A stretch of DNA of 64,000 nucleotides, taken from assembly GCA_902592345.1 (NCBI GenBank), contig CACJEE010000001.1, positions 46,038 to 110,037 on the forward strand. Direction: 5' to 3'. The translations under genes and the position numbers were made by a program. This DNA comes from an uncultured Alphaproteobacteria bacterium. Lineage in GTDB: Bacteria > Pseudomonadota > Alphaproteobacteria > HIMB59 > GCA-002718135. The notes under the pieces were generated by a model. The model did not search any database, was not told the DNA's origin, and was given only the letters and a program-made list of their open reading frames with translations. Below, one piece after another: positions 21,039 through 46,504 of this stretch (positions are counted from its first letter, which is position 1; every line of letters begins with the position of its first letter).

Positions 21039-21055
21039 GTATTAATTAAAACTTT

Positions 21056-25908: not shown

Positions 25909-26784
25909 TCAATTTATTTTAAATTCTTCATCAAAAGACTCATTAAATTTTGTTAAATTTTCTGCAGTATAACTCTTATAATCAAATTCTATATTGGAGG
26001 TAATCTCAGAAACCATACTCCACATAGTCTCTCTCAACAAGGAAGCAGATTTAATAGCTTTATATTTTATAAGTAATTCTGATGATAATTTTTTTTCAAA
26101 ATAGTTTTCAAGTAAATATTTTTCTTCATTCTCATTAAAATTATTATTAGAAGCTAGTCCACCAAGATCAAACAATGGTGTATTAAATCCTGCATATTCC
26201 CAATCAATTAACCATATCTTTTCTTGATCTTGAATAAAATTTGCTGGAAGCAGATCATTATGACTAAACACTATTTCAAAAGGTGATGATAGACTTTCTA
26301 ATTTAAGAGCTTTTTTTAGAAGATCTGGAAGAATTTTTATGTATGCACTTTTATGATCATCTAAAAAATTTTTATAATTTCTTATTACATGAAAAACCCA
26401 AAAAATAACAGATTGGCCTATAAGTTTATCAGGAATTTTGGTATGAACTTTCTTTATAAGTTTTGTTATATTATCCAAATTTTTTTTAATATCTTCAGAC
26501 TCAAAAGTTTTACCTTCAACATAGTTAAAAACTTGAATTGATTTCTCGTTAAATAATAATTGTGGACAAATACCAATTTTAGAAGCTGCCTTGCTTGCCT
26601 GAACTTCATTTGATCTAAAAACTAAATGCTCTGGTATATCATCACCTATTCTCACAAAATATTTTTTAGATCCATCAACTACAAGAAAGTTTTTATTTGT
26701 AATCCCTCCTTTAATAGAGGAAATATTAATTTTACCCTTCCAGAAATTAATACCAGAAATTATTTGATTGCTTTTTTTATCCAT
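25909..26784 (-). CDS. choline/ethanolamine-kinase-like phosphotransferase (APH fold)
   Basis: 291 aa with the Brenner motif HNDLLPANFI and the kinase motif WLIDWEYAGFN. Confidence 0.7.
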   Translation of the reverse strand: MDKKSNQIISGINFWKGKINISSIKGGITNKNFLVVDGSKKYFVRIGDDIPEHLVFRSNEVQASKAASKIGICPQLLFNEKSIQVFNYVEGKTFESEDIKKNLDNITKLIKKVHTKIPDKLIGQSVIFWVFHVIRNYKNFLDDHKSAYIKILPDLLKKALKLESLSSPFEIVFSHNDLLPANFIQDQEKIWLIDWEYAGFNTPLFDLGGLASNNNFNENEEKYLLENYFEKKLSSELLIKYKAIKSASLLRETMWSMVSEITSNIEFDYKSYTAENLTKFNESFDEEFKIN

Positions 26785-27710: not shown

Positions 27711-29057
27711 ATGTCTTTCCCAGAAAAGGTGGATTACGCAATTATAGGCGCAGGTATTCATGGTCTAAGCACTGCTTGGCATCTAGCTGCCAAATTAAAA
27801 GCCAAAGGAAAAGGTGATGGCTCCAAAATAGTTGTAATTGATAAAGACTCAATTGCGGCAGGTGCAAGCGGTGTTGCTTGTGGAGTGGTTCGTAATAATT
27901 ATTACCAACCTGCTATGAGAGAGTTAATGGCAATGTGTGTTGAAGTATGGGAGAGTGATGCAAAAAAATTTCATTATCATGATGTAGGTTATATGCAGAT
28001 AAGTCCTGAGTGTATGGAAAATGATGTTGCTGAAATTTATGCTCAGCAAAAAAATATTGGATACGACTCAGTTTTTATACAGGGTGAAAAAGACTCAGAA
28101 AATTATATGAAAAAAATGTTTGGTGATTGGCAAGCAAAAGGAATCACAAGTGTTTTGCATGAAAAAAGAGGTGGATATGCAAATAATACATCAGCTATTT
28201 ATGGTTTAGCAGATAAAGCTGAAGCAGAAGGTGTTCGTATCTTAACAGGGACAACAGTAAAGGGTTTTCAATATGGCTCTAACTCATCTGCTGTTACGGG
28301 CATTGAAACTGATAAGGGTTTAATAAAGTGTGATCAAGTAATAGTTGGGCCAGGGCCATGGGCAAAGTCTTTTTGGGATATGCTAGATCTGCCAAACAAA
28401 ATTACAATTAAGGGTGAAGATGGGAACATTCATAAAGATTATCCAATGTGGCATTATTGGATGTTAACTGAAGGAGTTTTAAGAGTTGATCCTAATTTTT
28501 TAAAAACTGACGACGGCAATATGCCTCCTGTTATTCATGTTGATACTGATGCACCTCTTTATTCAGACAGTGATAAGCAACATCTTATCACAGATAAATT
28601 GTGGGGAATATATTATAAGCCAGATTTTCATTTTGGAGGTATACAAGGTGGATCATCTCCTTATAAAGTTGGAGAACCTGGAGGAGAAGGGGTTAATGTT
28701 GATCCTTATGGAAATAAATCAGAAGATTTTGTTATTACTGATGAATTTGCTGATATGTGGAGTTCAGCTTTGGCTTTTTGTCATAAAAGATTTGAAGGAA
28801 AATCACACTTATTCAAAAAAGATGGGGGAGGCCTTGGTTGTTTTACGCCAGATTGCTTTCCTGTTTTTGATCAATTCAGAGAAAATGTATATTTAATTGC
28901 TGACTCTAATCATGGTTATAAAATGATTGGTGTGGGTAAATTAGTAGCTGACGAAGTTTTAGGTGAAAAAAGCTCATTATTAGAACCTTTTAGGTTTTCA
29001 AGATATGAGCAAGGAAAATTACATCCAACATCAAATAGTCCTTTTCCTTGGAGTTAA
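27711..29057 (+). CDS. FAD-dependent oxidoreductase (DAO/SoxB-like), candidate N-methylglutamate or secondary-amine oxidase/dehydrogenase
   Basis: 448 aa with N-terminal dinucleotide fold YAIIGAGIHGLSTAWHLA. First gene of the gmaS-mgs operon. Confidence 0.75.
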   Translation: MSFPEKVDYAIIGAGIHGLSTAWHLAAKLKAKGKGDGSKIVVIDKDSIAAGASGVACGVVRNNYYQPAMRELMAMCVEVWESDAKKFHYHDVGYMQISPECMENDVAEIYAQQKNIGYDSVFIQGEKDSENYMKKMFGDWQAKGITSVLHEKRGGYANNTSAIYGLADKAEAEGVRILTGTTVKGFQYGSNSSAVTGIETDKGLIKCDQVIVGPGPWAKSFWDMLDLPNKITIKGEDGNIHKDYPMWHYWMLTEGVLRVDPNFLKTDDGNMPPVIHVDTDAPLYSDSDKQHLITDKLWGIYYKPDFHFGGIQGGSSPYKVGEPGGEGVNVDPYGNKSEDFVITDEFADMWSSALAFCHKRFEGKSHLFKKDGGGLGCFTPDCFPVFDQFRENVYLIADSNHGYKMIGVGKLVADEVLGEKSSLLEPFRFSRYEQGKLHPTSNSPFPWS

Positions 29058-29101
29058 TATGATGTTGTATAGTTTTTATAATTCAATTGGGGGGAAATAA
29101 T

Positions 29102-30574
29102 ATGAGTGATTTAGAAAATTTTGTAAATCAACCAGGCAGAGATAAATTAGTTAAAGATGTAAGAAATAAAATAAAAGAATTAGGAATTACTTATATCTAT
29201 TATCAATTTGTTTCTGTAACAGGAAGAATTGTTGGTAAAGGTGTTCCTGCAGATCATTGGGAAACTTTAGCAGAAAAAGGATTTCAATTAGTTTACGGTG
29301 CTACAGCTAATTTATTTGTAGACAGGCATGGTGAATATATTGGATATGGACCTGAATCATCTGAACTTGTAGGTATTCCTGAACCTGATACATTTGTGCA
29401 ATTGCCTTGGGATAAAAGAGTTGCACGTGTTTGGTGTACTTGTTTTAGAAACAGAGAAGAAGATGAAAATCCTGGAGGACATTTAACATCTGATTGTCGT
29501 GGTAATTTAAAAATTTTCCAAGATCAATTTCAAGAAAAATTTGGAATGAATATGCGTGCTGGTACTGAGCCAGAAATGATGTGGTTGACTAAGAAAGATA
29601 ATGGAGAGCCAACAGGAGATGGATTTTCAAGACCTTATTGTTATCATATTGACCAATTTGAATCCTTAAGACCTGTATATATGAAAGTAATTGAATATTG
29701 CCGTGCTATGGGTCTTGATGTTATCCAAGGAGATCATGAAGATGCGCCTGGTCAATTAGAATTAAATTTCATGTATGATGATGTTTTAAGGAATGCTGAT
29801 AGACTAACAACTTATCGACAAATTTGTGCTCAAGTTGCAAGAGAATTTAATTTAATTGCTTGCTTTATGAGTAAACCTTTTATGGGTGTTTCTGCCAATG
29901 GATGTCATACAAATGTTTCACTTTGGAAAGGTGGAGAATTAAAATCGACACCTATTGGCAACAATCCACTACCAGGTATGGATCAAGTTTTTACACATAT
30001 TTCAGGAGGTGAAAATATGTTTATGCCTGATCCAAAAATAGATCCAGTTAAACCTGGCCCTGTTGGATTAAATAGTATTGCTGGTTTATTAAAACACTTA
30101 CCTGCTTTAACTTGTTTAGGATCTCCAACAGTTAATTCTTATAGAAGACTTTGGGATACAGGTTTCTGGGCACCAGTATATGCAGATTGGGGATATCAAA
30201 ACAGAACTTGTAGTGTTCGTGTTTCTGCCCCTGGCCGAGTAGAATACAGATCAGTAGATTCATCTCATAACCCATATCTAATGGGAGCTGGTATTTTAAA
30301 AGCTTTTGAAGATGGTCTAGATAATAAAATGGATCCAGGAGAACCTGAGAAAAAAAATATTTATGATGCAATGAAAGAAGGCAAAACAGTTGATAAACTT
30401 CCTTTAACTTTAGGCGAAGCTATTGATCGATTAGATAGTGATAAAGTGGTTAAAGCCGCATTGCCTGAAGATATGCTTAGAGTCTTTATGCATTATAAAA
30501 AAGATGAGTGGGAAAAATTCCTTTCTGCAGTTACACAATGGGATGTTGATACTTACTTGGACGTATTGCCATAA
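29102..30574 (+). CDS. gmaS: gamma-glutamylmethylamide synthetase (glutamine synthetase family)
   Basis: I take ATG 29102 (MSDLENF...), preceded by GGGGGGAAATAAT. GS catalytic-domain motifs are present (EPEMMWL, GCHTNVSLW, NSYRRL). Linked to mgsABC. Confidence 0.8.
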   Translation: MSDLENFVNQPGRDKLVKDVRNKIKELGITYIYYQFVSVTGRIVGKGVPADHWETLAEKGFQLVYGATANLFVDRHGEYIGYGPESSELVGIPEPDTFVQLPWDKRVARVWCTCFRNREEDENPGGHLTSDCRGNLKIFQDQFQEKFGMNMRAGTEPEMMWLTKKDNGEPTGDGFSRPYCYHIDQFESLRPVYMKVIEYCRAMGLDVIQGDHEDAPGQLELNFMYDDVLRNADRLTTYRQICAQVAREFNLIACFMSKPFMGVSANGCHTNVSLWKGGELKSTPIGNNPLPGMDQVFTHISGGENMFMPDPKIDPVKPGPVGLNSIAGLLKHLPALTCLGSPTVNSYRRLWDTGFWAPVYADWGYQNRTCSVRVSAPGRVEYRSVDSSHNPYLMGAGILKAFEDGLDNKMDPGEPEKKNIYDAMKEGKTVDKLPLTLGEAIDRLDSDKVVKAALPEDMLRVFMHYKKDEWEKFLSAVTQWDVDTYLDVLP

Positions 30575-30594
30575 TATAAGAAAGGATAATTAGT

Positions 30595-31536
30595 ATGTGC
30601 GGAATTGCTGGAATAATTCACAAAGGTAAATCTACAAACGTAGGTGGAGAAATGCAAAAAATGCTGCAATCTCTAAAACATCGAGGACCAGACTCAACTG
30701 GCTATGCTTTATATGGAAATGGTGAGTCGAATAATTATATTTTAAGATTTAAAGTTGGTGAAAATGTCAAAGAAGGTAGTTCTGCAGTAATGGAGGATGA
30801 AAGTGTCTATCAAGAAAGGGTAGAACAGGTAAATTCAAAAATATCTACTTCAGGCGCAACTCTTCATAAAGAAGAGCAGATCACCCCATATTCTTATAGA
30901 TATGTAATTTCTTATGATGGAGATTTACTTGATTTAGCAAAACAAATTGAATCAGTTGAAATGACAGAAATTTTATCTCTAGGTAAGTCACTGGAATTAA
31001 TAAAAGATATCGGTGATGCTTCAGTTGTTGCTAACCAATATGATCTCAGTGATTTTGCTGGTACTCATGGCATTGGGCACACTAGAATGGCAACTGAATC
31101 TGGTGTGGATATTCGTTCTGCTCATCCATATTGGGCGTATCCATTTAGTGATGTATCCGTTGTTCATAATGGTCAATTAACAAATTATTGGAATAATCGT
31201 AGAGCTCTTGAAAAAAAAGGGATGCGCTTTATGTCTACATGTGACTCTGAGCTAATTGCAGTTTATCTTGCTGATAAAATACGTAATGGAATAGATCTAG
31301 AAGAAGCGATGAGAGGATCCTTAGATGACTTGGATGGCGTGTTTACATATTTAGTCGCAACGAAAGATAAATTAGGAATGGCAAAAGATCATATGGCTGC
31401 TAAACCAATGGTATTGTATGAAAGTGATGATTTGGTAGCACTTGCTTCCGAAGAAGTTGCGATAAGAACCGTTCTTCCTGAAGAGATCGACACTTATGAT
31501 CCATATGAAGGAGAGGTAAAAGTATGGCAAGCATAA
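30595..31536 (+). CDS. mgsA: N-methylglutamate synthase subunit A (class-II glutamine amidotransferase-like)
   Basis: 313 aa with the N-terminal nucleophile MCGIAG and a GHTRMATES motif. Confidence 0.8.
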   Translation: MCGIAGIIHKGKSTNVGGEMQKMLQSLKHRGPDSTGYALYGNGESNNYILRFKVGENVKEGSSAVMEDESVYQERVEQVNSKISTSGATLHKEEQITPYSYRYVISYDGDLLDLAKQIESVEMTEILSLGKSLELIKDIGDASVVANQYDLSDFAGTHGIGHTRMATESGVDIRSAHPYWAYPFSDVSVVHNGQLTNYWNNRRALEKKGMRFMSTCDSELIAVYLADKIRNGIDLEEAMRGSLDDLDGVFTYLVATKDKLGMAKDHMAAKPMVLYESDDLVALASEEVAIRTVLPEEIDTYDPYEGEVKVWQA

Positions 31537-32366
31537 AAAAACATAAATCTACTGAAATGGGTTTGCATGATGAAGTTTTAACAGGCCGTACCCAACAAGT
31601 TTTTTTTAATCCAGAAGAGACAGAAAATTTCTTTTATCATGACGCCCATAAAGTTGACTTTAATAAAAGAACAGAAATTGATGCAAATAATTTAGAATGT
31701 ATTAATATCAATAGAAAAATAAACGAACTAATGGCTAAAGGTTATGGAACAATTGTCATAAAAAATCCTGGATCAAAACATAGTATAGGTGTTGGAATTT
31801 TAAATAAACTGAACTTAATTATAGAAGGTAGTCTTGGATATTTTGGAATAGGTTCAGTTGATGGGCCTGTTGTAAGAATATCTGGAAGAGTTGGCTGGTC
31901 TTGTGCTGAAAATATGATGGCTGGTAAAGTTGTTGTAGAAAAAAATGCCGGATCTTGTTTTGGAGCAGCAATTAGAGGTGGAGATTTAATTTGCAAAGGA
32001 AGTGTTGGCGCTAGATCAGGTATTGATATGAAAGGTGGCACTATTATAGTAGGTGGAGATGCCGGAGCCTTTACAGGCTTTATGATGCAACGAGGAAGAA
32101 TAGTTATTCTTGGAGATGTTGGTCCTAATTTAGGTGACTCACTTTATGATGGCACTATTTTTGTTGGAGGTTCAATTAAATCATTAGGCGCTGATGCTGT
32201 TGAGGCGGAGCTAACTGATTTAGATATAGCTTGGTTAAAAAGAAAAATAAAAGTTTCCGAAATTGATAAAAAAATTGATTATAAAAAAATTACAAAAATT
32301 GTTTCAGGAAAAAAATTATGGAATTACGATAATTTAGAACCAACTGAGAGAAAAGGTGCAATTTAG
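31524..32366 (+). CDS. mgsB: N-methylglutamate synthase subunit B (GXGXG-motif domain)
   Basis: 280 aa. Glycine-rich beta-helix repeats as in the GltB C-terminal domain. 13-nt overlap with mgsA. Confidence 0.8.
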   Translation: MASIKKHKSTEMGLHDEVLTGRTQQVFFNPEETENFFYHDAHKVDFNKRTEIDANNLECININRKINELMAKGYGTIVIKNPGSKHSIGVGILNKLNLIIEGSLGYFGIGSVDGPVVRISGRVGWSCAENMMAGKVVVEKNAGSCFGAAIRGGDLICKGSVGARSGIDMKGGTIIVGGDAGAFTGFMMQRGRIVILGDVGPNLGDSLYDGTIFVGGSIKSLGADAVEAELTDLDIAWLKRKIKVSEIDKKIDYKKITKIVSGKKLWNYDNLEPTERKGAI

Positions 32367-32379
32367 AAAGGATTGAATA

Positions 32380-33729
32380 ATGGCTAAAAAAAATAAAAAA
32401 AATACAGATAAAAGTTTATTAGGTCGTAATTCAATTTTTACTCCTGATGTAATAAACGATATTCATATTAAGTCGCAGTTAGGCAGATACCGTATGCGTG
32501 GTATGGCTCTTATGAAAAAAATACCTCACTGGGATGATTTAACATTCTTACCTGGCACTCTTACTAGATTTGTAATTGAAGGGTATAGAGAGAAATGTGA
32601 AACAAAGACTGTAATTGGTCCACGATGTAAAAACCCAATAGAATTAGATATTCCAGTTTATATAACTTCAATGAGCTTTGGCGCTTTATCTTATGAAGCA
32701 AAAACTGCACTTGCAAGAGGAGCAACAATGGCTGGAAGCGCAACATGTTCAGGTGAAGGTGGAATGATTCCAGATGAAAGAAGATATTCTCACAAGTGGT
32801 ATTATCAATGTATTCAATCTCGATATGGTTTTAATCCGCACCATGCTCAATTAGCGGATGGAATAGAAGTATTTATAGGACAGGGTCAGAAAGTTGGAAT
32901 GGGTGGACATTTGATGGGACAAAAAGTTACTGACCAAGTTGCTGAAATGAGGTCTTTACCCGCTGGTATTGATCAGAGATCACCGGCTAGACATCCTGAC
33001 TGGTTAGGGCCTGATGATCTGGCATTAAAAGTGCAGGAACTTAGAGAATTAACTGATAACCAAGTACCGATTCAATTAAAACTTGGTGCAGCTAAAGTTT
33101 ATGATGATGTTAGAATGGCAGCTAAATGTGATCCAGACTCTATTTATTTAGATTGTATGGAAGGCTCAACTGGTGCAGGCCCTCATATTGCTGCAGCTAA
33201 TACAGGTATTCCTGGTATAGCAGCCGTAAGAGAAGCAAGAAGAGCATTAGATGATGTAGGGAAATCAGGAGATGTTACTTTAATTTTTGCAGGTGGACTT
33301 AGAGATGGGGCAGATATGGCAAAAGCTTTAGCACTAGGCGCTGATTGTATTTCTGTTGGCACAGGTGCATTAGTTGCACTTAATTGCAATAAAGATATTC
33401 CGGAAGCTGATTTTGAAAAAGAATTAGGAGTAGAGGCAGGGTACTGCTATCATTGTCATACAGGAAGATGTCCAGTAGGTGTTGCAACCCAAGATCCTGA
33501 ATTAAGAAAAAGATTAAATCCAGATGATGCAGCGCTTAGGGTTTATAACTATTTACATGCGATGACCTTAGAGGCTCAACTTTTAGCAAGAGCATGCGGT
33601 AAAACCAACATTCATTCATTAGAACCAGAAGATCTTGCTGCATTGACTATGGAAGCATCTGCACTTGCAAAAGTACCACTTGCAGGAACAGATCATACAG
33701 TAGGTGTTGACAACTTCCATTCAATTTAG
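32380..33729 (+). CDS. mgsC: N-methylglutamate synthase subunit C (FMN-dependent glutamate-synthase-like domain)
   Basis: 449 aa with MSFGALS and GEGG motifs and a C-terminal GGLRDGADMAKALALGAD FMN-barrel pattern. Confidence 0.8.
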   Translation: MAKKNKKNTDKSLLGRNSIFTPDVINDIHIKSQLGRYRMRGMALMKKIPHWDDLTFLPGTLTRFVIEGYREKCETKTVIGPRCKNPIELDIPVYITSMSFGALSYEAKTALARGATMAGSATCSGEGGMIPDERRYSHKWYYQCIQSRYGFNPHHAQLADGIEVFIGQGQKVGMGGHLMGQKVTDQVAEMRSLPAGIDQRSPARHPDWLGPDDLALKVQELRELTDNQVPIQLKLGAAKVYDDVRMAAKCDPDSIYLDCMEGSTGAGPHIAAANTGIPGIAAVREARRALDDVGKSGDVTLIFAGGLRDGADMAKALALGADCISVGTGALVALNCNKDIPEADFEKELGVEAGYCYHCHTGRCPVGVATQDPELRKRLNPDDAALRVYNYLHAMTLEAQLLARACGKTNIHSLEPEDLAALTMEASALAKVPLAGTDHTVGVDNFHSI

Positions 33730-33738
33730 GAGATACAT

Positions 33739-34155
33739 ATGGTTAAGAAAAAAAATAAAAAAACTTTAAAAAAGAAAGTCAAATCTTCTAAACAAAAAGA
33801 TAAAGGCATTAAAACTGCTAGGGAAAAAATGATAGGTCAACATATTGGCTATCGCTATGATGTTAACCTATTACCTGATTATAATCGATTAACTCCCTTT
33901 TTAAAAAAATATATTGAGCACATGGGTTGGGATGATCTAAACTGGCTGGAAGATGTTCATATGGGATATGAAAATGGTAAACCTGCTGTGTTTGACAGAA
34001 ATATAAATGGATGGGTTACAACTCCACCAAAATTAAAATTGCCAAAAGATCAACAAGATCGAGATATGATAGCAAGAGAATTATTAATTAAATTTCAAAT
34101 GTCTTCAAATCACCCTCTTGTTGTATTAAAGAAGGCATATAAAAAATTTAATTAA
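33739..34155 (+). CDS. hypothetical protein with a lysine-rich N-terminus
   Basis: 138-aa ORF starting 9 nt after mgsC, with TAGGAG 6 nt upstream of the ATG. I recognise no family. Confidence 0.55.
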   Translation: MVKKKNKKTLKKKVKSSKQKDKGIKTAREKMIGQHIGYRYDVNLLPDYNRLTPFLKKYIEHMGWDDLNWLEDVHMGYENGKPAVFDRNINGWVTTPPKLKLPKDQQDRDMIARELLIKFQMSSNHPLVVLKKAYKKFN

Positions 34156-34253: not shown

Positions 34254-35141
34254 ATGTGTGGTATAGTAGGTTTATATTTAAAAAAGAAAAAATTGCATAA
34301 TAAACTTGGGTTTTATTTAAGTGGTATGCTTGATAATATGTCATCAAGAGGACCGGACTCTGCAGGTTTTGCAATATATAATAATAAAGAATCAAAAAAA
34401 TATTATAAATATTCCCTTTGTTTAAATAACACATTATCAAGTGATTTTGAGCAAGTTGTTAATCAAAAATTTAAAGATATCACAATAAAAAATATTTCAG
34501 ATCATATAGTTGTTCAAACAACGACTACACCTAAAAAATTTATTTCTTATATTCATAAAAATTTTAGACTAATTTCATTAGTAGGTTATGGAAAATCAAT
34601 CGAAATTTTTAAACAAGTTGGAAATCCATCAGAAATAGTTAAAAAATTTAAGCTAGAAAATTTTTCTGGCTCACATGCAATCGGTCATACTAGAATGGCA
34701 ACTGAAAGTGCAATAACAGTCAATGGATCACATCCTTATTCAACTGGAGAAGATGAATGTTTAGTTCATAATGGCTCTTTATCTAATCACAACAATCTAA
34801 GAAGACAATTAATTAAAAAAGGTAAAACATTTGATTCTTTAAATGATACTGAAGTAGCTGCAGGTTATATAAGCCAAAAATTATCAGAAAATAAATCAAT
34901 GAAAAAAACTTTAACAGAATCTCTTACAGATTTAGATGGTTTTTATACTTTTATTGCTGGTACTAATAAAGGATTTGCTGTCTTAAGAGATGAAATTGCT
35001 TGTAAGCCTGCTGTCATAGCAGAAAATAATGACTATGTTGCTGTAGCTTCTGAATTTCAGGCTATGGCCCATCTTCCTTATGTTAATAAATCTAATATTT
35101 ATGAGCCAAAACCAGGAGTTGTATATACATGGGGAAAATAG
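34254..35141 (+). CDS. class-II glutamine amidotransferase-like protein, MgsA paralog
   Basis: 295 aa with the MCGIVG nucleophile and a GHTRMATES motif. By eye, far more positions differ from mgsA than match. Confidence 0.8.
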   Translation: MCGIVGLYLKKKKLHNKLGFYLSGMLDNMSSRGPDSAGFAIYNNKESKKYYKYSLCLNNTLSSDFEQVVNQKFKDITIKNISDHIVVQTTTTPKKFISYIHKNFRLISLVGYGKSIEIFKQVGNPSEIVKKFKLENFSGSHAIGHTRMATESAITVNGSHPYSTGEDECLVHNGSLSNHNNLRRQLIKKGKTFDSLNDTEVAAGYISQKLSENKSMKKTLTESLTDLDGFYTFIAGTNKGFAVLRDEIACKPAVIAENNDYVAVASEFQAMAHLPYVNKSNIYEPKPGVVYTWGK

Positions 35142-35824
35142 AAAATTTAGATTTTAAAAAAAACACTTTAAGAAAAATAAATAATTATCTCCAAAACATT
35201 AGTTATAAAAATAACAAAAGAGAATTTACTGTAAAAAATCCAAGTGGGCATCATGCTATATGTGCAGGATTAACTGAAAACATATTCGTAAAAATTAATG
35301 GACATGTTGGATATTATTGTGGAGGTATGAATCAAAAAGCACATATTACTATTAATGGTAATGCTGGGACTGGCTTAGGTGAAAATATGATGTCTGGTTT
35401 AATCCATGTAAAGGGTAATGCCTCGCAGTCTGCTGGTGCTACTGCACATGGGGGGACAATTATTATAGATGGTGACGCTAGCTCTCGCTGTGGTATTTCA
35501 ATGAAAGGTATTGATATAATTGTTAAAGGGTCTGTAGGTCATATGTCTGGATTCATGGCTCAATCAGGAACAATGCTTATTTGTGGTGATGCTGGTGAAG
35601 CACTTGGTGATAGTATCTATGAGACTGTTATCTATTTAGCAGGAAAACCAAAGAGTTTAGGTGTTGACTGTGTTGAAAAAAAAATAAACAAAAAAGATAT
35701 AAAAAAAATTGAAGATTTATTGAAAACTGGAAAGATAAAAAAATTTAAAGTAAAAGATTTTAAAAAATTTGGATCTCAGAGAAAACTATATAATTTTAAT
35801 ATAGATAACGTCTCTGATTATTAG
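35129..35824 (+). CDS. GXGXG-motif protein, MgsB paralog
   Basis: 231 aa of glycine-rich repeats. It has the same 13-nt overlap with the upstream gene as the mgsA/mgsB pair. Confidence 0.8.
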   Translation: MGKIENLDFKKNTLRKINNYLQNISYKNNKREFTVKNPSGHHAICAGLTENIFVKINGHVGYYCGGMNQKAHITINGNAGTGLGENMMSGLIHVKGNASQSAGATAHGGTIIIDGDASSRCGISMKGIDIIVKGSVGHMSGFMAQSGTMLICGDAGEALGDSIYETVIYLAGKPKSLGVDCVEKKINKKDIKKIEDLLKTGKIKKFKVKDFKKFGSQRKLYNFNIDNVSDY

Positions 35825-35825
35825 T

Positions 35826-37157
35826 ATGGCAAAAAAGAAAAAAAAAATATTCACAACTCCACGTAAATCATGGACTTTTGACGATTATACAAATTCAGAA
35901 ATAAGAAGAGCAGCTGCAACTGGTATTTATGATATTCGTGGTGGTGGCTCAAAAAGAAAACTACCTCATTTTGATGACCTACTTTTTTTAGGAGCATCTA
36001 TGTCTCGGTATCCTCTTGAGGGTTATAGAGAAAAATGTTTAACGAATGTTGTTTTAGGATCACGTTATGCAAAAAATCCTTTAGAACTTGATATTCCAAT
36101 AACAATTGCAGGTATGAGTTTCGGAGCATTATCTGGCCCGGCTAAAGAAGCTTTAGGTAGGGGTGCATCTATAGCTGGAACCTCAACTACAACTGGAGAT
36201 GGAGGTATGACCAAAGAAGAGAGAGGTCAATCTAAAACACTTGTATACCAACTTCTTCCTTCTCGTTATGGAATGAATCCTGAAGATTTGAGAAAAGCTG
36301 ATGCAATTGAAGTTGTTATTGGTCAAGGAGCAAAACCTGGTGGTGGAGGTATGTTATTAGGTCAAAAAATTAGTGACCGTGTGGCAGAAATGAGAGATCT
36401 ACCCAAAGGGATAGATCAAAGATCAGCATGCCGACATCCTGATTGGACAGGCCCTGATGATCTAGCGATAAAAATTACTGAACTTAGGGAAATAACACAA
36501 TGGAAAGTCCCTATCTTTGTTAAAATTGCAGGAGCTAGACCGTACTATGATACTGCCTTAGCTATAAAAGCGGGAGCTGATGTAGTTGTGCTTGATGGTA
36601 TGCAGGGTGGAACAGCAGCAACTCAAGAAGTTTTTATTGAAAATGTTGGACAACCTACATTAGCTTGCATACGTCCCGCAGTCGACGCACTTCAAGATTT
36701 AAATATGCATCGAAAAGTGCAACTTATTATTTCTGGAGGCATTCGAAATGGAGCCGATGTGTCTAAGGCACTTGCTTTAGGTGCAGACGCCGTATCAATT
36801 GGGTCGGCAGCTATGATAGCGATTGGTGATAATGATCCTAAATGGGAAAAAGAATATAAAAAACTTGGAAGTGTATCCGGAGCATATGACGATTGGCATG
36901 AAGGTAATGATCCTGCGGGTATATCTACTCAAGATAAAAATTTAATGAAAAGATTAGATCCTATTAAAGCAGGTAAAAAATTATCTAATTATTTAAAAGT
37001 TATGACTTTAGAAGCACAAACAATAGCAAGGGCTTGCGGTAAAAATAATTTGCATAATTTAGAACCTGAGGATCTTTGTGCTTTAACTGTTGAATCTGCT
37101 GCTATGGCTCGAGTTCCTTTAGCTGGCACGAACTGGATACCTGGTTTTGATAAATAA
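35826..37157 (+). CDS. FMN-dependent glutamate-synthase-like protein, MgsC paralog
   Basis: 443 aa with MSFGALS, GDGG and GGIRNGADVSKALALGAD motifs collinear with mgsC. Confidence 0.8.
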   Translation: MAKKKKKIFTTPRKSWTFDDYTNSEIRRAAATGIYDIRGGGSKRKLPHFDDLLFLGASMSRYPLEGYREKCLTNVVLGSRYAKNPLELDIPITIAGMSFGALSGPAKEALGRGASIAGTSTTTGDGGMTKEERGQSKTLVYQLLPSRYGMNPEDLRKADAIEVVIGQGAKPGGGGMLLGQKISDRVAEMRDLPKGIDQRSACRHPDWTGPDDLAIKITELREITQWKVPIFVKIAGARPYYDTALAIKAGADVVVLDGMQGGTAATQEVFIENVGQPTLACIRPAVDALQDLNMHRKVQLIISGGIRNGADVSKALALGADAVSIGSAAMIAIGDNDPKWEKEYKKLGSVSGAYDDWHEGNDPAGISTQDKNLMKRLDPIKAGKKLSNYLKVMTLEAQTIARACGKNNLHNLEPEDLCALTVESAAMARVPLAGTNWIPGFDK

Positions 37158-37210
37158 TTTTTAATTTATAATTTCGTATTACAAATAAATTTTTATAGAT
37201 AAGTAAATTG

Positions 37211-37819
37211 TTAAAGACTTTTTGCTAGTTTTTTAACTTTTCTCATATGTTTTTCAAATTCTTTTTTTGTCATCGTAGGTAAAACCGAATAAAATCTTAT
37301 ATATTTGGTTTTTAATCCTCCTAATTGAAAAACAGATTTTTTTATTCTTCTATATGGAATGTTATCAAAAATTGAAAAATTAAAATAAGTTATCATTGGT
37401 CCACCATAAGTAATTGATACTATCCCCAGTTTACCCTTCATAGCACCTGGAATAGGAAATCCATAATTTTTAAAAAATTTACTATCTGGAATTATCGATC
37501 TATATGTAAAAAACCACTTTGGATGCAAAACCCAATCAACCCAATTTTCTAAAATAGCATTAAGTCTTAAATTGTGACATGAGCCAATTAAAAACATTAT
37601 ATCAGCGTTTTCCAATCTTTTTCTATATTTTAAGACTATATCAGGAGGAGGGTTAACGTCTGAATTATAAAAAGGAAGCTGTTCTTTTTCTTCAAATAAA
37701 TTTATTAAGTCTATTTGATGACCACACTTTTTTGCTTCATTTATAAAAGTATCTTTAATAGCAGCATTAAAAGAATTTATTGAATTATGGTGACCAAATA
37801 TAATACAAATTTTTTTCAT
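37211..37819 (-). CDS. flavodoxin-like-fold NAD(P)H dehydrogenase (quinone)/FMN reductase family protein
   Basis: 202 aa. N-terminal MKKICIIFGHHNS... pattern typical of the Flavodoxin_2/NQO-like family. Confidence 0.6.
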   Translation of the reverse strand: MKKICIIFGHHNSINSFNAAIKDTFINEAKKCGHQIDLINLFEEKEQLPFYNSDVNPPPDIVLKYRKRLENADIMFLIGSCHNLRLNAILENWVDWVLHPKWFFTYRSIIPDSKFFKNYGFPIPGAMKGKLGIVSITYGGPMITYFNFSIFDNIPYRRIKKSVFQLGGLKTKYIRFYSVLPTMTKKEFEKHMRKVKKLAKSL

Positions 37820-37871
37820 TTAAATACAAATAACCTGTTTAATATATATATTATAATTTCTATAAAAATCA

Positions 37872-38414
37872 TTAAATTTGCTTAAATTTATTTTTGATTG
37901 GAGAAAAATGAAATATTTCAATATTTGCATTTAAATATGGGTTAAAGAAAAAATTATGCCAAAATGTATATTTCCACCTTGAATCGTTTTTTTTTAATTT
38001 AATAATATTAACTGGAAAAGAAAAACCGGTATCTCTCTCAAAAAATTGTGTATTTAATTTTTTTTTCTTAATAATTTTTTTATATAATTCTGAATTAACA
38101 TCAAAAGTAGCAGCAAAGGAACCATCAAAGTTAGCGGGGGTATTATAATATTCTGATGAAAGAAGTTTTACAATTTTATCAAACCTTATTTCAGGTTCAT
38201 TAGTTTGTTTAATCATAAATTCAAACATTTTAGCTGTATCATTGCAGTTTTTTTCTAGTAGTACTGATCTAATACTACAAAGTTCTTTGTTTGATTTAAT
38301 TTCTGAAAGATTAGCTAATGTTCCTTCAGATGGTTTTCCACTAAACATCCTGAAATTACGTTGTCGAATACTGCACTGCCAAACAACAAAATCACTCCAA
38401 CCAATCTTTGACAT
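37872..38414 (-). CDS. hypothetical protein
   Basis: 180-aa ORF starting 15 nt downstream of the GS-like gene on the same strand. I recognise no family. Confidence 0.5.
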   Translation of the reverse strand: MSKIGWSDFVVWQCSIRQRNFRMFSGKPSEGTLANLSEIKSNKELCSIRSVLLEKNCNDTAKMFEFMIKQTNEPEIRFDKIVKLLSSEYYNTPANFDGSFAATFDVNSELYKKIIKKKKLNTQFFERDTGFSFPVNIIKLKKNDSRWKYTFWHNFFFNPYLNANIEIFHFSPIKNKFKQI

Positions 38415-38429
38415 GTTTAATTTATAAAT

Positions 38430-39785
38430 TTAACAATCTAAAGTATTATCTCTTTCCCATTGAGTTATTATATTAGATTTATTTGATTTCGATTTTTTGA
38501 AGCCAATTCTTTTTTCTTGAGATGAATTATACTTTTTAATTTCTCTATTTTTTAACGTTATGTAGGAATTGATAACATCTTTACCAAAAGCAGACTTAAG
38601 AACTTTACTTTTATTTAGATTATTTAATGCTTGATTTAAACTTAATGGTAATTTTTTTGCACCTTTAACTTTATGCGCTTCTTCATACATATTAACTTTA
38701 ATAGGTTTACCTGGGTTTCTTTTTTTATCCAAACCATCTAATCCTGCTGCAATAATTCCAGCTTGTAATAAATAAGGATTAGTTGCTCCATCCATTAACC
38801 TTAATTCAAATCTACCTGAGCCGGGAACACGTATCATATGAGTTCTATTATTACCAGAATAGGTAATAGTGTTAGGAGACCAAGTAGCTCCAGAATCAGT
38901 AACAGGAGCATTAATTCTTTTATAACTATTAATGGTTGGATTAAACCACGCAGTTAAAGCTTCAGCTGAGTTCATAATTCCACCCATAAAATGGTAAGCA
39001 GTTTTTGATAAGCCTAATTGATCTTTTTTATCTAAAAATAAATTCTTACCTTTTTTATTCCAGATTGATAGGTGCGCATGACACCCATTTCCAGTTTTAT
39101 CTATAAAGGGTTTTGGCATAAAGGTAGCTCTTAAACCTACTTTTTCTGCTAAAGTTCTAACCATAAATTTAAAAAAAACATGTCGGTCAGCCGTTTGTAG
39201 GCAGTCTGAAAAATCCCAATTCATTTCAAATTGTCCATTAGCATCTTCATGATCATTTTGGTATGGACCCCAACCAAGCATAATCATTGAATCACATATA
39301 CCTCTAATTAAATCATACTGACGCATCAATGCAGATTGATCATAGCAAGGTTTATCAGCAATATCTTTTTGATCTGCAATAGAATCACCACTTGGAGAAA
39401 TTAAAAAATATTCACATTCAACACCACTTTTTAAGTGCATATTCTTCTTTGCTAATTTATTAATTTGATTACGTAACATAACGCGAGGAGAGGCATCTAC
39501 TGGTTTACCATCCATCCATAAATCTGCTGCTAACCAACCAACATCCATTTGCCATGGAAGTTGTATAAAACTATTCGGATCAGGTATTGCAGCCATATCT
39601 GGGTCAGATGGAGACATATCTAAGTACGTAGAAAAACCAGCAAATCCTGCACCTTCTTTTTGCATTTCTTTTATAGATTGAGCAGGGACTAATTTAGATC
39701 TAAGTACTCCAAAAAAATCTACATAACTTATTAAAAAGTATTTTATTTTTTTCTTTTTTGCGACCTCCGCCAAGTTTATAGCCAT
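38430..39785 (-). CDS. glutamine synthetase family protein (gamma-glutamyl-amine synthetase-like, PuuA/GlnA-like)
   Basis: 451 aa with GS motifs GVECEYFL, NGCHAHLSIW and NSYKRI. A Lys/Ser-rich C-terminal tail of about 30 aa is not typical of GS. Confidence 0.8.
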   Translation of the reverse strand: MAINLAEVAKKKKIKYFLISYVDFFGVLRSKLVPAQSIKEMQKEGAGFAGFSTYLDMSPSDPDMAAIPDPNSFIQLPWQMDVGWLAADLWMDGKPVDASPRVMLRNQINKLAKKNMHLKSGVECEYFLISPSGDSIADQKDIADKPCYDQSALMRQYDLIRGICDSMIMLGWGPYQNDHEDANGQFEMNWDFSDCLQTADRHVFFKFMVRTLAEKVGLRATFMPKPFIDKTGNGCHAHLSIWNKKGKNLFLDKKDQLGLSKTAYHFMGGIMNSAEALTAWFNPTINSYKRINAPVTDSGATWSPNTITYSGNNRTHMIRVPGSGRFELRLMDGATNPYLLQAGIIAAGLDGLDKKRNPGKPIKVNMYEEAHKVKGAKKLPLSLNQALNNLNKSKVLKSAFGKDVINSYITLKNREIKKYNSSQEKRIGFKKSKSNKSNIITQWERDNTLDC

Positions 39786-41880: not shown

Positions 41881-43047
41881 ATGACGTTGGAAGAATTAAA
41901 TGTTTTTGTCACCACACAAGCAAACGTGGGCATGGAAGCTTACTATTGGTGGTGTACAGGACTAATGATTATTATTCACGTTGGTTTCTTAATGTATGAA
42001 GTAGGCGCTACAAGAATGCAAAATGCTGTTTCTTCAGGTGTTAAAAATTTATTAGCATTTGCATTTATGATACCAACATTTTGGCTATTTGGATGGTGGA
42101 TCTACTTAGCTTTTCCAGGAGGATTTGTACCTATTGATTTAGAAGGATACGGAGTTCCATGGAATGTTTCAATGGGACCAATGCTAAGTGACCAAGCTAC
42201 CGGTGTATTCTGGGCTGCATTTACTCTATTTGCTTGTACTACTGCTTCAATTTTTTCTGGAGCTGTAATTGAAAGAATTAGAATTAGTGCATTTGTATTT
42301 CTAGCAGTTGTTTTAGGATCTGTTGTTTGGATTTTAGCAGCTTCTTGGGGATGGCATCCAGATGGATGGCTTGTAACTGGATGGGGATTCCATGACGTAG
42401 CGGCTGCAGGGTGTGTTCACACTGTTGCAGGACTATTTGCATTTGGGGTGCTTTTAAACCTTGGACCAAGAGTAGGAAAATATAATGATGATGGCTCTAT
42501 GAATGATCTTGAAGGTCATAGCTTAGTTCTATCTTTTGTTGGCTTATTAACTTTGATTGTAGGTTTCTTTGGATTCCTAGGAGCTTGTTTAATTTGGGCA
42601 GGATCAGATTTTGGAGGTTGGGTAAATATTTATGGTGCACCAGCTACATTATCTTCTTTTGCATTCAATACTTTGATGGGTCTAGCTGGAGGCATGATCG
42701 GTGCTTTCTGGTGGAGTAAAGGAAATCCTTTCTGGATGATGTCAGGTGGACTAGCAGGTATATTCATATGTGCTGGTGGTCTTGATATTTGGTATCCTGG
42801 GTTTGCATTTATTCTTGGAACAGTTGCAGGATGTGTAATTATTCCAGCAAACAATTGGCTTCATAACACTTTTAAAATAGATGACTGTGTAGGAGCAGTA
42901 TCAATTCACGGTGTTTGTGGTATCTTAGGTATGTTGTGTGTAGGACTTTTTGCTTCTGGTTTTCCAGCAGCAGGAGATATTCCAGCTTCAAATCTAACTG
43001 GTCAAATTGTTGGTGCTATTGTATGTTTTATATGCAAGTTTAGCTGA
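41881..43047 (+). CDS. amt: ammonium transporter (Amt family), apparently truncated at the 3' end
   Basis: 388 aa with conserved DVAAAGCVHTVAG and SIHGVCGILG (twin-His) motifs and a strong AAGGAGG SD. The ORF ends (…GQIVGAIVCFICKFS*) only part-way into the expected 11th TM helix. Confidence 0.8.
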   Translation: MTLEELNVFVTTQANVGMEAYYWWCTGLMIIIHVGFLMYEVGATRMQNAVSSGVKNLLAFAFMIPTFWLFGWWIYLAFPGGFVPIDLEGYGVPWNVSMGPMLSDQATGVFWAAFTLFACTTASIFSGAVIERIRISAFVFLAVVLGSVVWILAASWGWHPDGWLVTGWGFHDVAAAGCVHTVAGLFAFGVLLNLGPRVGKYNDDGSMNDLEGHSLVLSFVGLLTLIVGFFGFLGACLIWAGSDFGGWVNIYGAPATLSSFAFNTLMGLAGGMIGAFWWSKGNPFWMMSGGLAGIFICAGGLDIWYPGFAFILGTVAGCVIIPANNWLHNTFKIDDCVGAVSIHGVCGILGMLCVGLFASGFPAAGDIPASNLTGQIVGAIVCFICKFS

Positions 43048-43116
43048 AAGTAAAATTTCACCTGATAAAAGCTCTACATTGCCAAGGTTATAAATTTCAT
43101 AGTCAATATTATTCAT
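42994..43116 (-). pseudogene. 40-codon remnant resembling the N-terminus of a MetX-type (homoserine O-acetyltransferase-like) alpha/beta hydrolase
   Basis: The minus strand reads MNNIDYEIYNLGNVELLSGEILLSAKLAYKTYNSTNNLTS*. The pattern L-x-SG-x-x-L-x(4)-LAY-x-TY is typical of MetX N-termini. The remnant runs into the amt 3' end. Confidence 0.3.
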
Positions 43117-43146
43117 TATAATAAAATATAATCTATTTTAAATGTT

Positions 43147-44562
43147 TTAATATAACCTTAGATATTCTTTTACTTCCCAATCTGTAACAGCCTGATGATA
43201 TCTTTCCCATTCATCATTTTTATATTGAACATATGAATTTAACATTACTTTACCCATTACTTTTTCTGCAATTTTATTTTTTTGTAAAGCTTCAGTAGCT
43301 TGAAGTAAATTTCTTGGAAGACGTCTTATGCCAAGCTTTTTCATATCTTCAGTTTTTAATGCGTAGAGATCAAAATCAGAGGGTTTTCCAGGATCAGTTT
43401 TATTTTGAATACCATCTATTGCAGCTGATATAGTCATACCAAGTGCTAAGTAAACATTCATTGTTAAATCAGCCGCACGGTTTTCTATACAGTATCTATT
43501 TTGTGGTAATCTAAATTGTGCTGAGCGATTATTATGACCATACGTAATATTAGTTGGTGCCCACGTATGAACTCCGCCCTCAAAACCACCTACAGTTGGT
43601 ACTAACCCATTATATGAATTTACTGTTGGACAAGTAATTGCAGTTATAGCTTCTGAATTTTCAAGCAAGCCACCAACTGCATGCATTGCATCTTGAGACC
43701 ATTTATCACCATCTTTAAAAACATTTGTATTTTTCTTTATATCATTGAGTGAAAAATTTATATGCCCTCCTGAACGCCAATCACCTATAGTTGGTTTTGG
43801 CATGAAGGTGACAAACATATCATGTTTTTTCGCCACTTCTTTTAAAAGTATTTTTAAAAATACTAATCTATCTGCCATTTGTAGAAGATCAGTATAATGA
43901 AAATCTAATTCAAATTGAGAATAAGCACCTTCAGCAACAACATCGTGTAAGTCCCATCCTAACTCACCTAATATATCCATCATTTCTTTTAAAAAATGCA
44001 TTGAATCTAAAGAATATTCAACATCATAGCCAAATGCTTGTCTTCTTGGTTGAATGCCATGAGGTGGATCATTATCTATTGCCTTAACAGGCTCACCTTT
44101 TTCGTTGTATTTCATTACAATGAACTCAGGCTCTATGCCTGCAAAACCTTGATACCCTTGTTCTTGTTTTTCTTGAATGATTTTTTTCAGAGCTTGTCTT
44201 GGACAAACATTGTAGGGAGCGCCTTCCCAAAACAAATCAGCAAATATTATGGCTGTTGTTTTATCCCACGGACAAACATATACAGCATTAAGATCAGGAA
44301 GCATTATTTGATCAGGATCAGCTGGTGTTAACTCAGGAACAAAAGATATTGAATGAACTGCAAATTGTGGACCTTTACCCATACATAAAGCTTCAAAATC
44401 ACTCATAGGAACAGGTTTAGTTTTTGGTATCCCGTGCATATCAATCCAACTAGATAAAACATATTTAACTCCTGCATCTTCAAGTCTTTTTTTGGTCGAT
44501 GCTATTTCAGGTTTATTTCTTTCTATAGCCTCGCTTAAGCTTTCATAATAAATTTTGCTCAT
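43147..44562 (-). CDS. glutamine synthetase family protein (type-III/GmaS-like gamma-glutamyl-amine synthetase)
   Basis: 471 aa with GS motifs IEPEFIVM, SGGHINFSL and NSYNGL. This is the third GS-family gene in the window. Confidence 0.8.
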   Translation of the reverse strand: MSKIYYESLSEAIERNKPEIASTKKRLEDAGVKYVLSSWIDMHGIPKTKPVPMSDFEALCMGKGPQFAVHSISFVPELTPADPDQIMLPDLNAVYVCPWDKTTAIIFADLFWEGAPYNVCPRQALKKIIQEKQEQGYQGFAGIEPEFIVMKYNEKGEPVKAIDNDPPHGIQPRRQAFGYDVEYSLDSMHFLKEMMDILGELGWDLHDVVAEGAYSQFELDFHYTDLLQMADRLVFLKILLKEVAKKHDMFVTFMPKPTIGDWRSGGHINFSLNDIKKNTNVFKDGDKWSQDAMHAVGGLLENSEAITAITCPTVNSYNGLVPTVGGFEGGVHTWAPTNITYGHNNRSAQFRLPQNRYCIENRAADLTMNVYLALGMTISAAIDGIQNKTDPGKPSDFDLYALKTEDMKKLGIRRLPRNLLQATEALQKNKIAEKVMGKVMLNSYVQYKNDEWERYHQAVTDWEVKEYLRLY

Positions 44563-44585
44563 TAGTTATCCTTCCTATAATTTTT

Positions 44586-44984
44586 TTATTCTATACCCAT
44601 ATCTTCAGGATCAATCCCTGGTACATGCGTAAGTCCAGCTTTCTTTTTCCAATCATGAGGATAGGCTGCGTAGAAAATTACACATGTTTCATCACATTCA
44701 TATGCAATATGATTGTCTTTTGGCACATATAAAACGTCTCCTGGATTACAGACATATGATTCTCCATCACAAGTAAGTCTGAATGAACCTTTCATACAAT
44801 ATATAATTTCATCACATGTTAAATCCCATGGTACTGATATTTTGTTTAGAAAATTTAAACCTCCACACATGGTGTCACTTACTTTTGAAGTTACAAAGGG
44901 CTTAATATAAGTTTGACCCGGCTCAAGTGTATGCAACCGGTGTTCTATATCTGAAAATTTGTATAATTGAGGTTTGTTACCCAT
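44586..44984 (-). CDS. cupin-domain protein (cupin_3/EutQ-like)
   Basis: 132 aa with a W...DEIIYCMKGSFRLT.DGE....PGDVLYVPKD pattern typical of small single-domain cupins. Confidence 0.6.
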   Translation of the reverse strand: MGNKPQLYKFSDIEHRLHTLEPGQTYIKPFVTSKVSDTMCGGLNFLNKISVPWDLTCDEIIYCMKGSFRLTCDGESYVCNPGDVLYVPKDNHIAYECDETCVIFYAAYPHDWKKKAGLTHVPGIDPEDMGIE

Positions 44985-44997
44985 GATCTACCTTTCT

Positions 44998-45420
44998 TTA
45001 TGATGTTTGTATTTTTTCGTTTAGTTCTACTTTGTAACCATCCGGATCTTCACAAAATGCTATTACTCTAGTTCCGTGTTTCATTGGTCCTGGCGGTCTT
45101 GTAATTTTTATTCCTGCTTCCGATAAACTTTCACAGGCTTTGTATACATCTGGTGTTTCAACACAAATGTGTCCCCAACCATTACCTTTCTCGTAAGGTT
45201 CTGCTTGATCCCAATTATATGTTAATTCTAGGGTTGGGAATTCTGTTTCTGGACCATAACCAATAAAAGTATTTGTAAATTTTCCGTCTGGATAATCAGT
45301 TTTACGTAAAACTTTCATGCCTAGTATGTCACAATAAAATTTTAATGATAATTCAAGATTTTGAACACGCATCATAGTATGTGCTAGTCTAAAACCAGAG
45401 GAAATTTCATTATCTGTCAT
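44998..45420 (-). CDS. gloA: lactoylglutathione lyase (glyoxalase I)
   Basis: 140 aa with HTMMRVQNLELSLKFYCDILGMKVL...LELTYNW...GHICVE, collinear with GloA. Confidence 0.85.
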   Translation of the reverse strand: MTDNEISSGFRLAHTMMRVQNLELSLKFYCDILGMKVLRKTDYPDGKFTNTFIGYGPETEFPTLELTYNWDQAEPYEKGNGWGHICVETPDVYKACESLSEAGIKITRPPGPMKHGTRVIAFCEDPDGYKVELNEKIQTS

Positions 45421-46504
45421 TTATAACCTTTTTTTTATTTTTTTTGTTTTGCCCCATAGATTTAATCATAATTTGTTGAAATGCGCGAATACTATTTTCC
45501 CAATGAGGGGATAATAATCCACCATTTTTAGACACGGGGGATGATCTACCTAACTGAAGCCTCTCACATATCTCATGATCTTCTTTATGAACTTTCCACC
45601 AAAGATCCTTAACACTTTTGATTTGATTTTTTGTAAGGTTATTACCTTCAGTAGTATAAATAATTCTTTTTTGATGAGTAATGCCGGGTTCAACTGGTAG
45701 ATTTAAATGAACACCTATTTGTCCAGGATAATATGTCCCTATAATAAAATTTGGAAATAAAGACAAATATTTTGAACTTACCGCCAAGCTGTCTGCAGAA
45801 GTGTTTTCATTTTTTAAATCAACAGCACTTCCATAACATCTTCCATCAACTAAAGTATAATGATCTTTAAGAGGTTGACTTGTAGTTGTTTTATGCACAA
45901 ATTGAACGTGATAAGGCTCTATAAAATTTTCAATTAAAAATTTCCAATTTGTATATACTTTTCCAAAGTCTAATGTTGCAACTTGTTTTATTTTTTTTAA
46001 ATTAAAATCTTTAAGTTGCTTAATTAATGGTGAGGCATATTTTTCAAACGGCAATGCATTGTTATTTAAATTGATAAAAATCCAATCATTCCAGATTTTA
46101 ATTCTTATAGATTTTAGTCCATTATCTTCATTTTTAAAACCTTTTGGTGTATGATTATTAGTTCCTCCAAAGTGAGGCGCTCTAATCAGATTGCCATTTA
46201 AGTCATAGAGCCAGGCATGATACGGACAGTTTATATATTTTCCAAGATTCTTATTTTCATCAACTAATTTTAAACATCGATGACTGCATACATTGTGGAA
46301 GGCGACAATTTCATTTTCATTATTTTTTAAAATTAGAATTGGTTTATGGGCAATAGTTAGAGTGACAGCATCGCCAACAGATTTTAGTTCATGAGCAAAA
46401 CCAACAAACATCCAATTATCAGAAAATACTGTTTCGCCTTCTTTTATCCAAAAATCATTATCAGTATAAGATTCTGATGGCAGTCCTCTAAAAATAGTGC
46501 TCAA
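45410..46504 (-). CDS. Rieske [2Fe-2S] non-haem-iron oxygenase, alpha-subunit-like (quaternary-amine/choline-monooxygenase-like group)
   Basis: 364 aa with Rieske motif CSHRCLKL...CPYHAW. The catalytic domain has EPYHVQFVH. No reductase or beta subunit is nearby. Confidence 0.8.
   Translation of the reverse strand: MSTIFRGLPSESYTDNDFWIKEGETVFSDNWMFVGFAHELKSVGDAVTLTIAHKPILILKNNENEIVAFHNVCSHRCLKLVDENKNLGKYINCPYHAWLYDLNGNLIRAPHFGGTNNHTPKGFKNEDNGLKSIRIKIWNDWIFINLNNNALPFEKYASPLIKQLKDFNLKKIKQVATLDFGKVYTNWKFLIENFIEPYHVQFVHKTTTSQPLKDHYTLVDGRCYGSAVDLKNENTSADSLAVSSKYLSLFPNFIIGTYYPGQIGVHLNLPVEPGITHQKRIIYTTEGNNLTKNQIKSVKDLWWKVHKEDHEICERLQLGRSSPVSKNGGLLSPHWENSIRAFQQIMIKSMGQNKKNKKKVINDR

Follow-up and report, generated by a model that had tools for sequence, protein, structure and literature searches.

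Three minus-strand genes were analyzed in a 64,000-nucleotide stretch of contig CACJEE010000001.1, from an uncultured HIMB59-type alphaproteobacterium; this whole stretch is called the window below. They encode a glutamine synthetase (GS)-like enzyme of 451 amino acids (GS451, 38430-39785), an uncharacterized protein of 180 amino acids (u180, 37872-38414) and a flavodoxin-fold protein of 202 amino acids (flav202, 37211-37819). We consider it probable (about 80%) that this locus represents the gmaS end of a HIMB59/AEGEAN-169-type island for methylated-amine catabolism, in which u180 is an accessory gene and flav202 an outsider. An earlier sequence-only reading had taken the three genes as an operon in which the partners of the GS-like gene match no known pathway. 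Its three open reading frames (ORFs), with spacers of 15 nt between gmaS and u180 and of 52 nt between u180 and flav202, were confirmed exactly, and no terminator-like site was seen within gmaS-u180-flav202. The pathway, however, is a familiar one: gmaS together with mgsABC, tmm, tdm and a transporter of the trimethylamine N-oxide (TMAO) type make up an N-methylglutamate pathway locus.

Family placement of the GS-like enzyme

GS451 matched the Pfam domain Gln-synt_C with 307 bits and scored 626.5 bits on TIGR03105, the GlnT or "type III GS" model, whose cut-off is 469.6. It remained below the cut-offs of GlnA (TIGR00653, 293 bits vs 429) and of PuuA (NF045547, 250.7 bits vs 650). The best solved relative was RhGmaS from Rhodovulum sp. 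12E13 (PDB 7CQL; PMC7948447), with a score of 566 bits and an identity of 59% across 415 aligned residues, followed by a glutamate-methylamine ligase with 321 bits, while true glutamine synthetases reached at most 221 bits. The structure of RhGmaS defines 23 functional positions for ATP, glutamate, Mg2+, the methylamine pocket and catalysis (PMC7948447). Twenty-two of them are identical in GS451, the exception being a conservative Tyr-to-Phe change at the adenine-stacking position. The catalytic Arg312, Asp177 and Glu186 (RhGmaS numbering) correspond to R314, D178 and E187, in agreement with the intact catalytic motifs noticed earlier, and the seven residues of the methylamine pocket (Tyr147, Gln175, Asp177, Glu179, Glu186, Asn188 and Lys30') are all conserved. 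Ala48' and Trp300 of RhGmaS stand where GS has the ammonium-binding Asp50' and the Glu-flap glutamate (PMC7948447); GS451 carries Ala49 and Trp302 at these positions.

Housekeeping GlnA was ruled out as the identity of GS451 by the sub-threshold TIGR00653 score and by the replacement of both Asp50' and the Glu-flap glutamate, and PuuA was ruled out by a score far under the NF045547 cut-off. Because of these family scores and the residue evidence, GS451 is placed outside GlnA and within a known pathway: as far as its sequence tells, it is the GmaS orthologue (gamma-glutamylmethylamide synthetase) of the N-methylglutamate pathway. The sequence-only reading had suggested a GS paralogue that gamma-glutamylates an amine and had proposed placing it within the GS family; the suggestion holds, and the placement that we obtained is GmaS, neither GlnA nor PuuA. 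The same reading had named a GlnA identity joined to an unconserved 180-aa ORF as the outcome that would overturn it. The GlnA score was 293 against 429, and the u180 family proved to be widespread.

Genomic linkage agrees with this placement. The canonical mgsABC genes, encoding a putative N-methylglutamate synthase (34254-37157, plus strand; Pfam GATase_6/7, GXGXG and Glu_synthase), adjoin the gmaS-u180-flav202 set convergently, tail-to-tail, and relatives have a co-directional mgsABC-gmaS arrangement. They form the second GATase/GXGXG/flavin mononucleotide (FMN) triplet of the window (295, 231 and 443 aa), which agrees with mgsABC in size and order. Farther along the island lie tmm (trimethylamine monooxygenase, plus strand; 745 bits on NF058570, cut-off 675) and tdm (TMAO demethylase, minus strand; 1111 bits on NF053776, cut-off 1100), both within 22152-25840, and an OpuAC-type ATP-binding cassette transporter of the TMAO type (tmoXVW, 17863-21997). 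In this pathway GmaS would use ATP to ligate monomethylamine to glutamate, giving gamma-glutamylmethylamide, which the adjacent MgsABC would convert to N-methylglutamate. Methylated amines would come from the action of tmm and tdm, which lie upstream in the island.

With RhGmaS and the TIGR03105 family GS451 shares the pocket and catalytic residues and the linkage to mgsABC, and from RhGmaS it differs by its one Tyr-to-Phe change and by a greater length (451 vs ~435 aa) owing to a Lys/Ser-rich insert; its activity is predicted. This insert of ~16-20 residues (38466-38525, minus strand) was delimited by comparison of orthologue C-termini. All eight HIMB59-type GmaS orthologues (451-452 aa) carried a ~16-residue Lys/Ser-rich insert followed by TQWE(R/K)DNTLDC, which in GS451 reads TQWERDNTLDC, whereas five orthologues from GC-rich genomes (434-435 aa) showed a similar end, (S/N/D/A)WE(K/R)xxTLD(I/C), without the insert. 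The Lys/Ser-rich C-terminal tail reported before does exist, but it is not an atypical or novel domain: these comparisons identify it as a lineage-specific stretch of low complexity in an AT-rich genome, inserted before a conserved end motif.

The locus shares gmaS beside mgsABC with the mgsABC-gmaS-mgdABCD clusters of Methyloversatilis, Methylocella and Ruegeria pomeroyi and with SAR11 glxBCD-glnT (PMC3160333, PMC5520151). The SAR11 C1 paper describes glxBCD and glnT only (PMC3160333), and SAR11 lacks dmmDABC according to the dimethylamine monooxygenase paper (PMC5520151). The island studied here also unites tmm, tdm and the TMAO-type transporter with gmaS-mgsABC. It differs from those N-methylglutamate clusters in that no mgdABCD genes were found within the 64-kb window and a conserved extra gene, u180, follows gmaS. 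The window further adds a DAO-type paralogous GS/GATase/GXGXG/FMN cluster with u138, as well as a third GS paralogue. Methylamines are not mentioned in the AEGEAN-169 paper.

The u180 family: conservation, predicted fold and gene neighborhood

The 180-aa ORF had been described as belonging to no recognizable family, and this was borne out: the Pfam and NCBIfam models gave no match with any of 38 family members, even at E<=1. Yet the gene is conserved. A first search retrieved 409 homologues at E<=1e-3, all of ~181 aa, and the family comprised 246 representatives at 50% clustering. A profile search extended it to 644 proteins, almost all of which bear the label "hypothetical protein", with carriers in Pelagibius, Anderseniella, Rhodospirillaceae and many metagenomes, and a single metagenome scan gave more than 500 u180-encoding stretches. 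The dN/dS values of u180 against HIMB59-type orthologues were 0.12-0.18. From these data u180 is a real gene, member of a widespread family without annotation. A full-text search found no published description of it.

Family members are about 190 aa long and share the motifs F..WQCR.RQ...R...GRP, YYQ.P..F and QAT.WHN.LFNP, with F9, W12, Q13, C14, R22, G26, P28, F96, H153 and N158 invariant. Longer members contained no true domain fusions; their extra length came from mis-called starts, frameshifts or low-complexity inserts. No member was found on plasmids in a tblastn search with one GC-rich homologue as query, and the family profile gave chance-level matches alone against PDB sequences. TmaR was considered as the identity of u180 and discarded, the TmaR paper being concerned with an AraC-type protein.

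Structure prediction, which the sequence-only reading had recommended for this protein, yielded a confident AlphaFold model (pLDDT, a per-residue confidence score, 92.6; predicted template modelling score 0.86) from an alignment of 135 sequences, for which an earlier model from 21 sequences (pLDDT 58.6) was discarded. The top 50 Foldseek matches in the PDB were all PNPOx-like FMN-binding split barrels or their heme-binding relatives, including HutZ, HupZ, ChuZ and PaiB, with a best E-value of 4e-4 and target-normalized template modelling (TM) scores of 0.57-0.67 for the best-superposed matches. A PNPOx-like split-barrel fold is predicted for u180 from this model. The protein would share it with PNPOx-like split barrels such as 2RE7, 2IAB and 3DB0 and with the heme-binding HutZ and HupZ, but it has an extra, highly conserved N-terminal helix plus additional helices, its identity to them is below 10% and it matches no Pfam split-barrel model. 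No Dmm or HODM subunit appeared in the PDB profile search or in the Foldseek top list; no direct comparison with Dmm sequences was made. If the model is right, u180 may bind a flavin-type cofactor or, less probably, heme. It might then serve the FMN- or flavin adenine dinucleotide (FAD)-dependent enzymes of the methylamine modules, MgsC or the FMN protein GLS449 described below, or a DAO-type oxidoreductase, perhaps as a small partner in redox reactions or in cofactor handling. We hold this redox or cofactor role tentatively, at somewhat less than even odds.

A genome scan with a narrow u180 alignment reached HIMB59-type genomes and one Acidobacteriota metagenome-assembled genome (MAG) only. 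In every HIMB59-type locus covering the region, gmaS was followed by u180 with a gap of 10-20 nt, and three loci from GC-rich alphaproteobacteria (L003, L088 and L097) showed a co-directional mgsA-mgsB-mgsC-gmaS-u180 order. Outside HIMB59 u180 was more often a lone gene, and its commonest genomic partner was a paralogous cluster that is also present in the window (27711-34155, plus strand; Pfam and NCBIfam assignments). This cluster encodes a DAO-type FAD oxidoreductase (DAO448, 448 aa), a GS-like protein (GS495, 495 aa), a GATase protein (GAT313, 313 aa), a GXGXG protein (GXG280, 280 aa), an FMN glutamate-synthase-domain protein (GLS449, 449 aa) and a 138-aa protein (u138). Of the non-HIMB59 loci, 55 extended far enough downstream, and in 40 of these the u138 end of this operon lay tail-to-tail with the u180 homologue. 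The 46 loci with enough upstream sequence had, on the other side of u180, an Amt gene in 30 cases and gmaS in five. A tdm or tmm gene lay near u180 in several loci, including the Acidobacteriota MAG. The atypical loci L040 and L090 held unrelated genes and gave no functional hint for u180.

Some relatives without mgsABC, L001 and similar loci, had the 3' ends of u180 and u138 separated by zero to a few bases or overlapping by 4 nt (10001-10546 and 10543-10941 in L001). Since these ends converge so closely, antisense overlap of the transcripts is allowed. In the Acidobacteriota MAG (L019, a 5.76-Mb contig) the u180 homologue was 30% and the GmaS-like gene 40% identical, and genes for u180, the GmaS-like enzyme, Amt, DAO, tdm and u138-GLS-GXG all fell within 12 kb, which implies that the module as a whole was transferred between phyla or has been conserved since ancient times. 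The DAO cluster itself was unusually conserved across HIMB59, GC-rich alphaproteobacteria and the Acidobacteriota MAG, with identities of ~79% for the FMN subunit and 65-81% for u138. A full-text search of the literature found no description of the DAO-GS-GAT-GXG-GLS cluster.

The flav202 insertion and the competing explanations

The assignment of the third ORF as a flavodoxin-fold, reductase-like protein stood, with matches to Flavodoxin_2 (PF02525) at 62 bits (gathering score 27) and to FMN_red at 32 bits. PF02525 and an N-terminal GH..S.NSFN-type motif are shared with the Flavodoxin_2 NAD(P)H:quinone/FMN reductases (MdaB / KefF / azoreductase-like). However, flav202 is divergent from these enzymes, as it matched no solved structure at E<=1e-3 and its best NCBIfam match was far under the cut-off, and its genomic position is variable. 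The view of the three genes as one conserved unit had to be abandoned: a tblastn search with the window proteins found flav202 in none of 19 related loci, although the DNA of some is ~96-97% identical. In the close relatives L005-L010 and L013 only a few tens of bases separate the u180 stop from the mgsC stop, and blastn comparison with L006 and L009 (94.5-97.5% identical DNA) revealed a clean 640-bp insertion carrying flav202 at 37198-37837, in the AT-rich spacer between the two stop codons. No convincing direct or inverted repeats flanked it. Orthologues of flav202, 92-93% identical, occurred in at least two unrelated contexts in other genomes: in one, the gene precedes a MatE transporter gene; in the other, it is flanked by DUF502 and Mem_trans genes. 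The same insertion was present in one further metagenome contig, L107, whose DNA is 93.9% identical and whose flav202 protein does not differ in sequence. Since it recurs there, the insertion is real and represents a sub-lineage trait, not a conserved operon member. These sequence comparisons indicate that flav202 is outside the methylamine system, a floating accessory gene that one sub-lineage acquired between u180 and mgsC; its product is most probably an NAD(P)H:quinone/flavin reductase unrelated to that system.

Several observations weigh against our interpretation of the locus. It is known here from sequence alone, and the structural match of u180 is moderate (query-normalized TM-score 0.4-0.5, identity to the matches below 10%). 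Cofactor binding by u180 is deduced from the fold alone because no family member matches any split-barrel Pfam model. About one fifth of the u180 loci have unrelated neighbors. In addition, the flav202 insertion has been retained in a second strain whose DNA is ~6% divergent, and the absence of a terminator-like site between u180 and flav202 leaves room for a recruited function in the sub-lineage. Such recruitment, with flav202 as the reductase partner of u180 in a two-component system, would fit the co-directional landing of the gene 52 nt downstream of u180 and the identity of its protein in the two strains. We judge it very unlikely, in view of the near-identical orthologues found in at least two unrelated contexts and the lack of such a neighbor in most HIMB59 genomes and in all other u180 carriers. 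The original proposal goes further, to a dedicated operon for gamma-glutamylation of an amine other than methylamine with u180 and flav202 as pathway-specific proteins, and could point to three co-directional ORFs with short, terminator-free spacers and to the same arrangement in one other metagenome contig. We regard it as extremely unlikely: GS451 fits every tested feature of GmaS, mgsABC, tmm and tdm flank gmaS, and flav202 is missing from all 19 related loci and placed elsewhere in other genomes.

Other explanations concern u180 itself. Outside HIMB59 it typically stands alone, diverging from an Amt gene (28 of 46 evaluable upstream neighbors) and converging on a catabolic operon, a position that resembles that of a regulator; the most conserved part of the family is the Arg-rich N-terminal helix (F..WQCR.RQ...R...GRP) outside the barrel core, and PaiB and CREG, split barrels that are not classical enzymes, are among the structural matches. 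A non-redox regulator or adaptor re-using the split-barrel scaffold, be it a ligand sensor or a modulator of Amt or of GS-like ligases, is nevertheless rather doubtful, as Pfam and NCBIfam searches found no DNA-binding domain, the same loci already hold XRE-cupin, GntR or IclR regulators and the HIMB59 gene starts 10-15 nt behind gmaS like an operon member. The range of the DAO cluster, from HIMB59 to soil Acidobacteriota and often adjoining tdm, bears on the idea that DAO448, GS495, GAT313, GXG280, GLS449, u138 and Amt form a second glutamate-mediated amine pathway with u180 as its flavin- or heme-carrying redox partner. This pathway would handle dimethylamine or another small amine in lineages where the Dmm monooxygenase is not in use, and u180 would be its signature accessory; in this specific form we think the idea unlikely. 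Quite improbable to us, too, is a HutZ/HugZ-like heme-binding or heme-degrading protein linked only indirectly to the methylamine genes. HutZ, HupZ, ChuZ and other heme-binding split barrels do rank among the top structural matches, and the invariant Cys14 and His153 could ligate heme or a metal, but no heme-uptake or iron genes occurred in any of the ~100 loci examined and the association of u180 is specifically with amine clusters that encode flavoenzymes. We retain, on balance, the reading of an N-methylglutamate locus with u180 as an accessory protein and flav202 as an outsider.

Layout of the island and its significance

The window has a base composition of ~30% G+C, and a genome scan found its closest genomes among the HIMB59/MarineAlpha5 (AEGEAN-169) single-cell and metagenome-assembled genomes. 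A gene for an IclR-family regulator also belongs to the island, and between it and tdm lies a kinase-like gene (25909-26784, minus strand) that resembles the guanitoxin N-oxide kinase GntI and thiamine kinase, in both cases below threshold; a copy adjoins tdm in L015 too. Past the gmaS side follow two EamA transporter genes, a shortened Amt-family transporter gene (41881-43047, plus strand; Pfam Ammonium_transp) and the third GS-like gene. The Amt gene encodes 388 aa here vs 426 aa, and blastn against L006 and L009 showed a relative deletion of ~1.8 kb. Lost are the Amt C-terminus, a gene of 82 aa and the greater part of a gene of 338 aa, whose first ~25 codons remain on the minus strand at ~43021-43120. 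This deletion could be a real event or an assembly error.

The third GS-like gene (GS471, 471 aa) lies in an apparent operon (43147-46504, minus strand) with genes for an EutQ-type cupin, a protein of the glyoxalase family and a Rieske oxygenase that shows weak similarity to GbcA, and this operon may be another gamma-glutamyl-amine route. GS495 and GS471, the two other GS paralogues of the window, show only 30-34% identity to GS451 and RhGmaS, do not reach the cut-off of TIGR03105 and have substitutions in the pocket. GS495 keeps most of the RhGmaS pocket, with differences at A48V, Y174I, W189F, G231A and H237N. The amine pocket of GS471 is changed by Q175D, D177V and N188D (RhGmaS numbering).

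The presence of mgsABC varies in HIMB59-type genomes. About half of the related loci lack it at this place; in these (L001, L011, L012 and L014-L018) u138 directly abuts u180 and gmaS is retained. Beyond the Amt side of L001, one HIMB59-type genome, positions 1-4300 carry HpcH/malyl-CoA-lyase-like, two-subunit succinyl/malate-CoA-ligase-like and phosphoenolpyruvate carboxylase genes, a set reminiscent of serine-cycle or glyoxylate-assimilation enzymes.

The locus is an ordinary pathway plus one unexplained accessory protein, and its residual novelty is the u180 family and the link of this family to an uncharacterized paralogous cluster. As gmaS serves as a standard marker of methylamine use in the sea, its recognition here removes a false lead. 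The u180 gene, in turn, nearly always neighbors genes for the catabolism of methylamine or related amines, in more than one phylum, and it marks an uncharacterized paralogue of the N-methylglutamate module. Should the DAO module indeed handle dimethylamine or another small amine, this would bear on the reported "bottleneck" of marine methylated-amine degradation (PMC5520151) and on estimates of the oceanic flux of amines and aerosol precursors.

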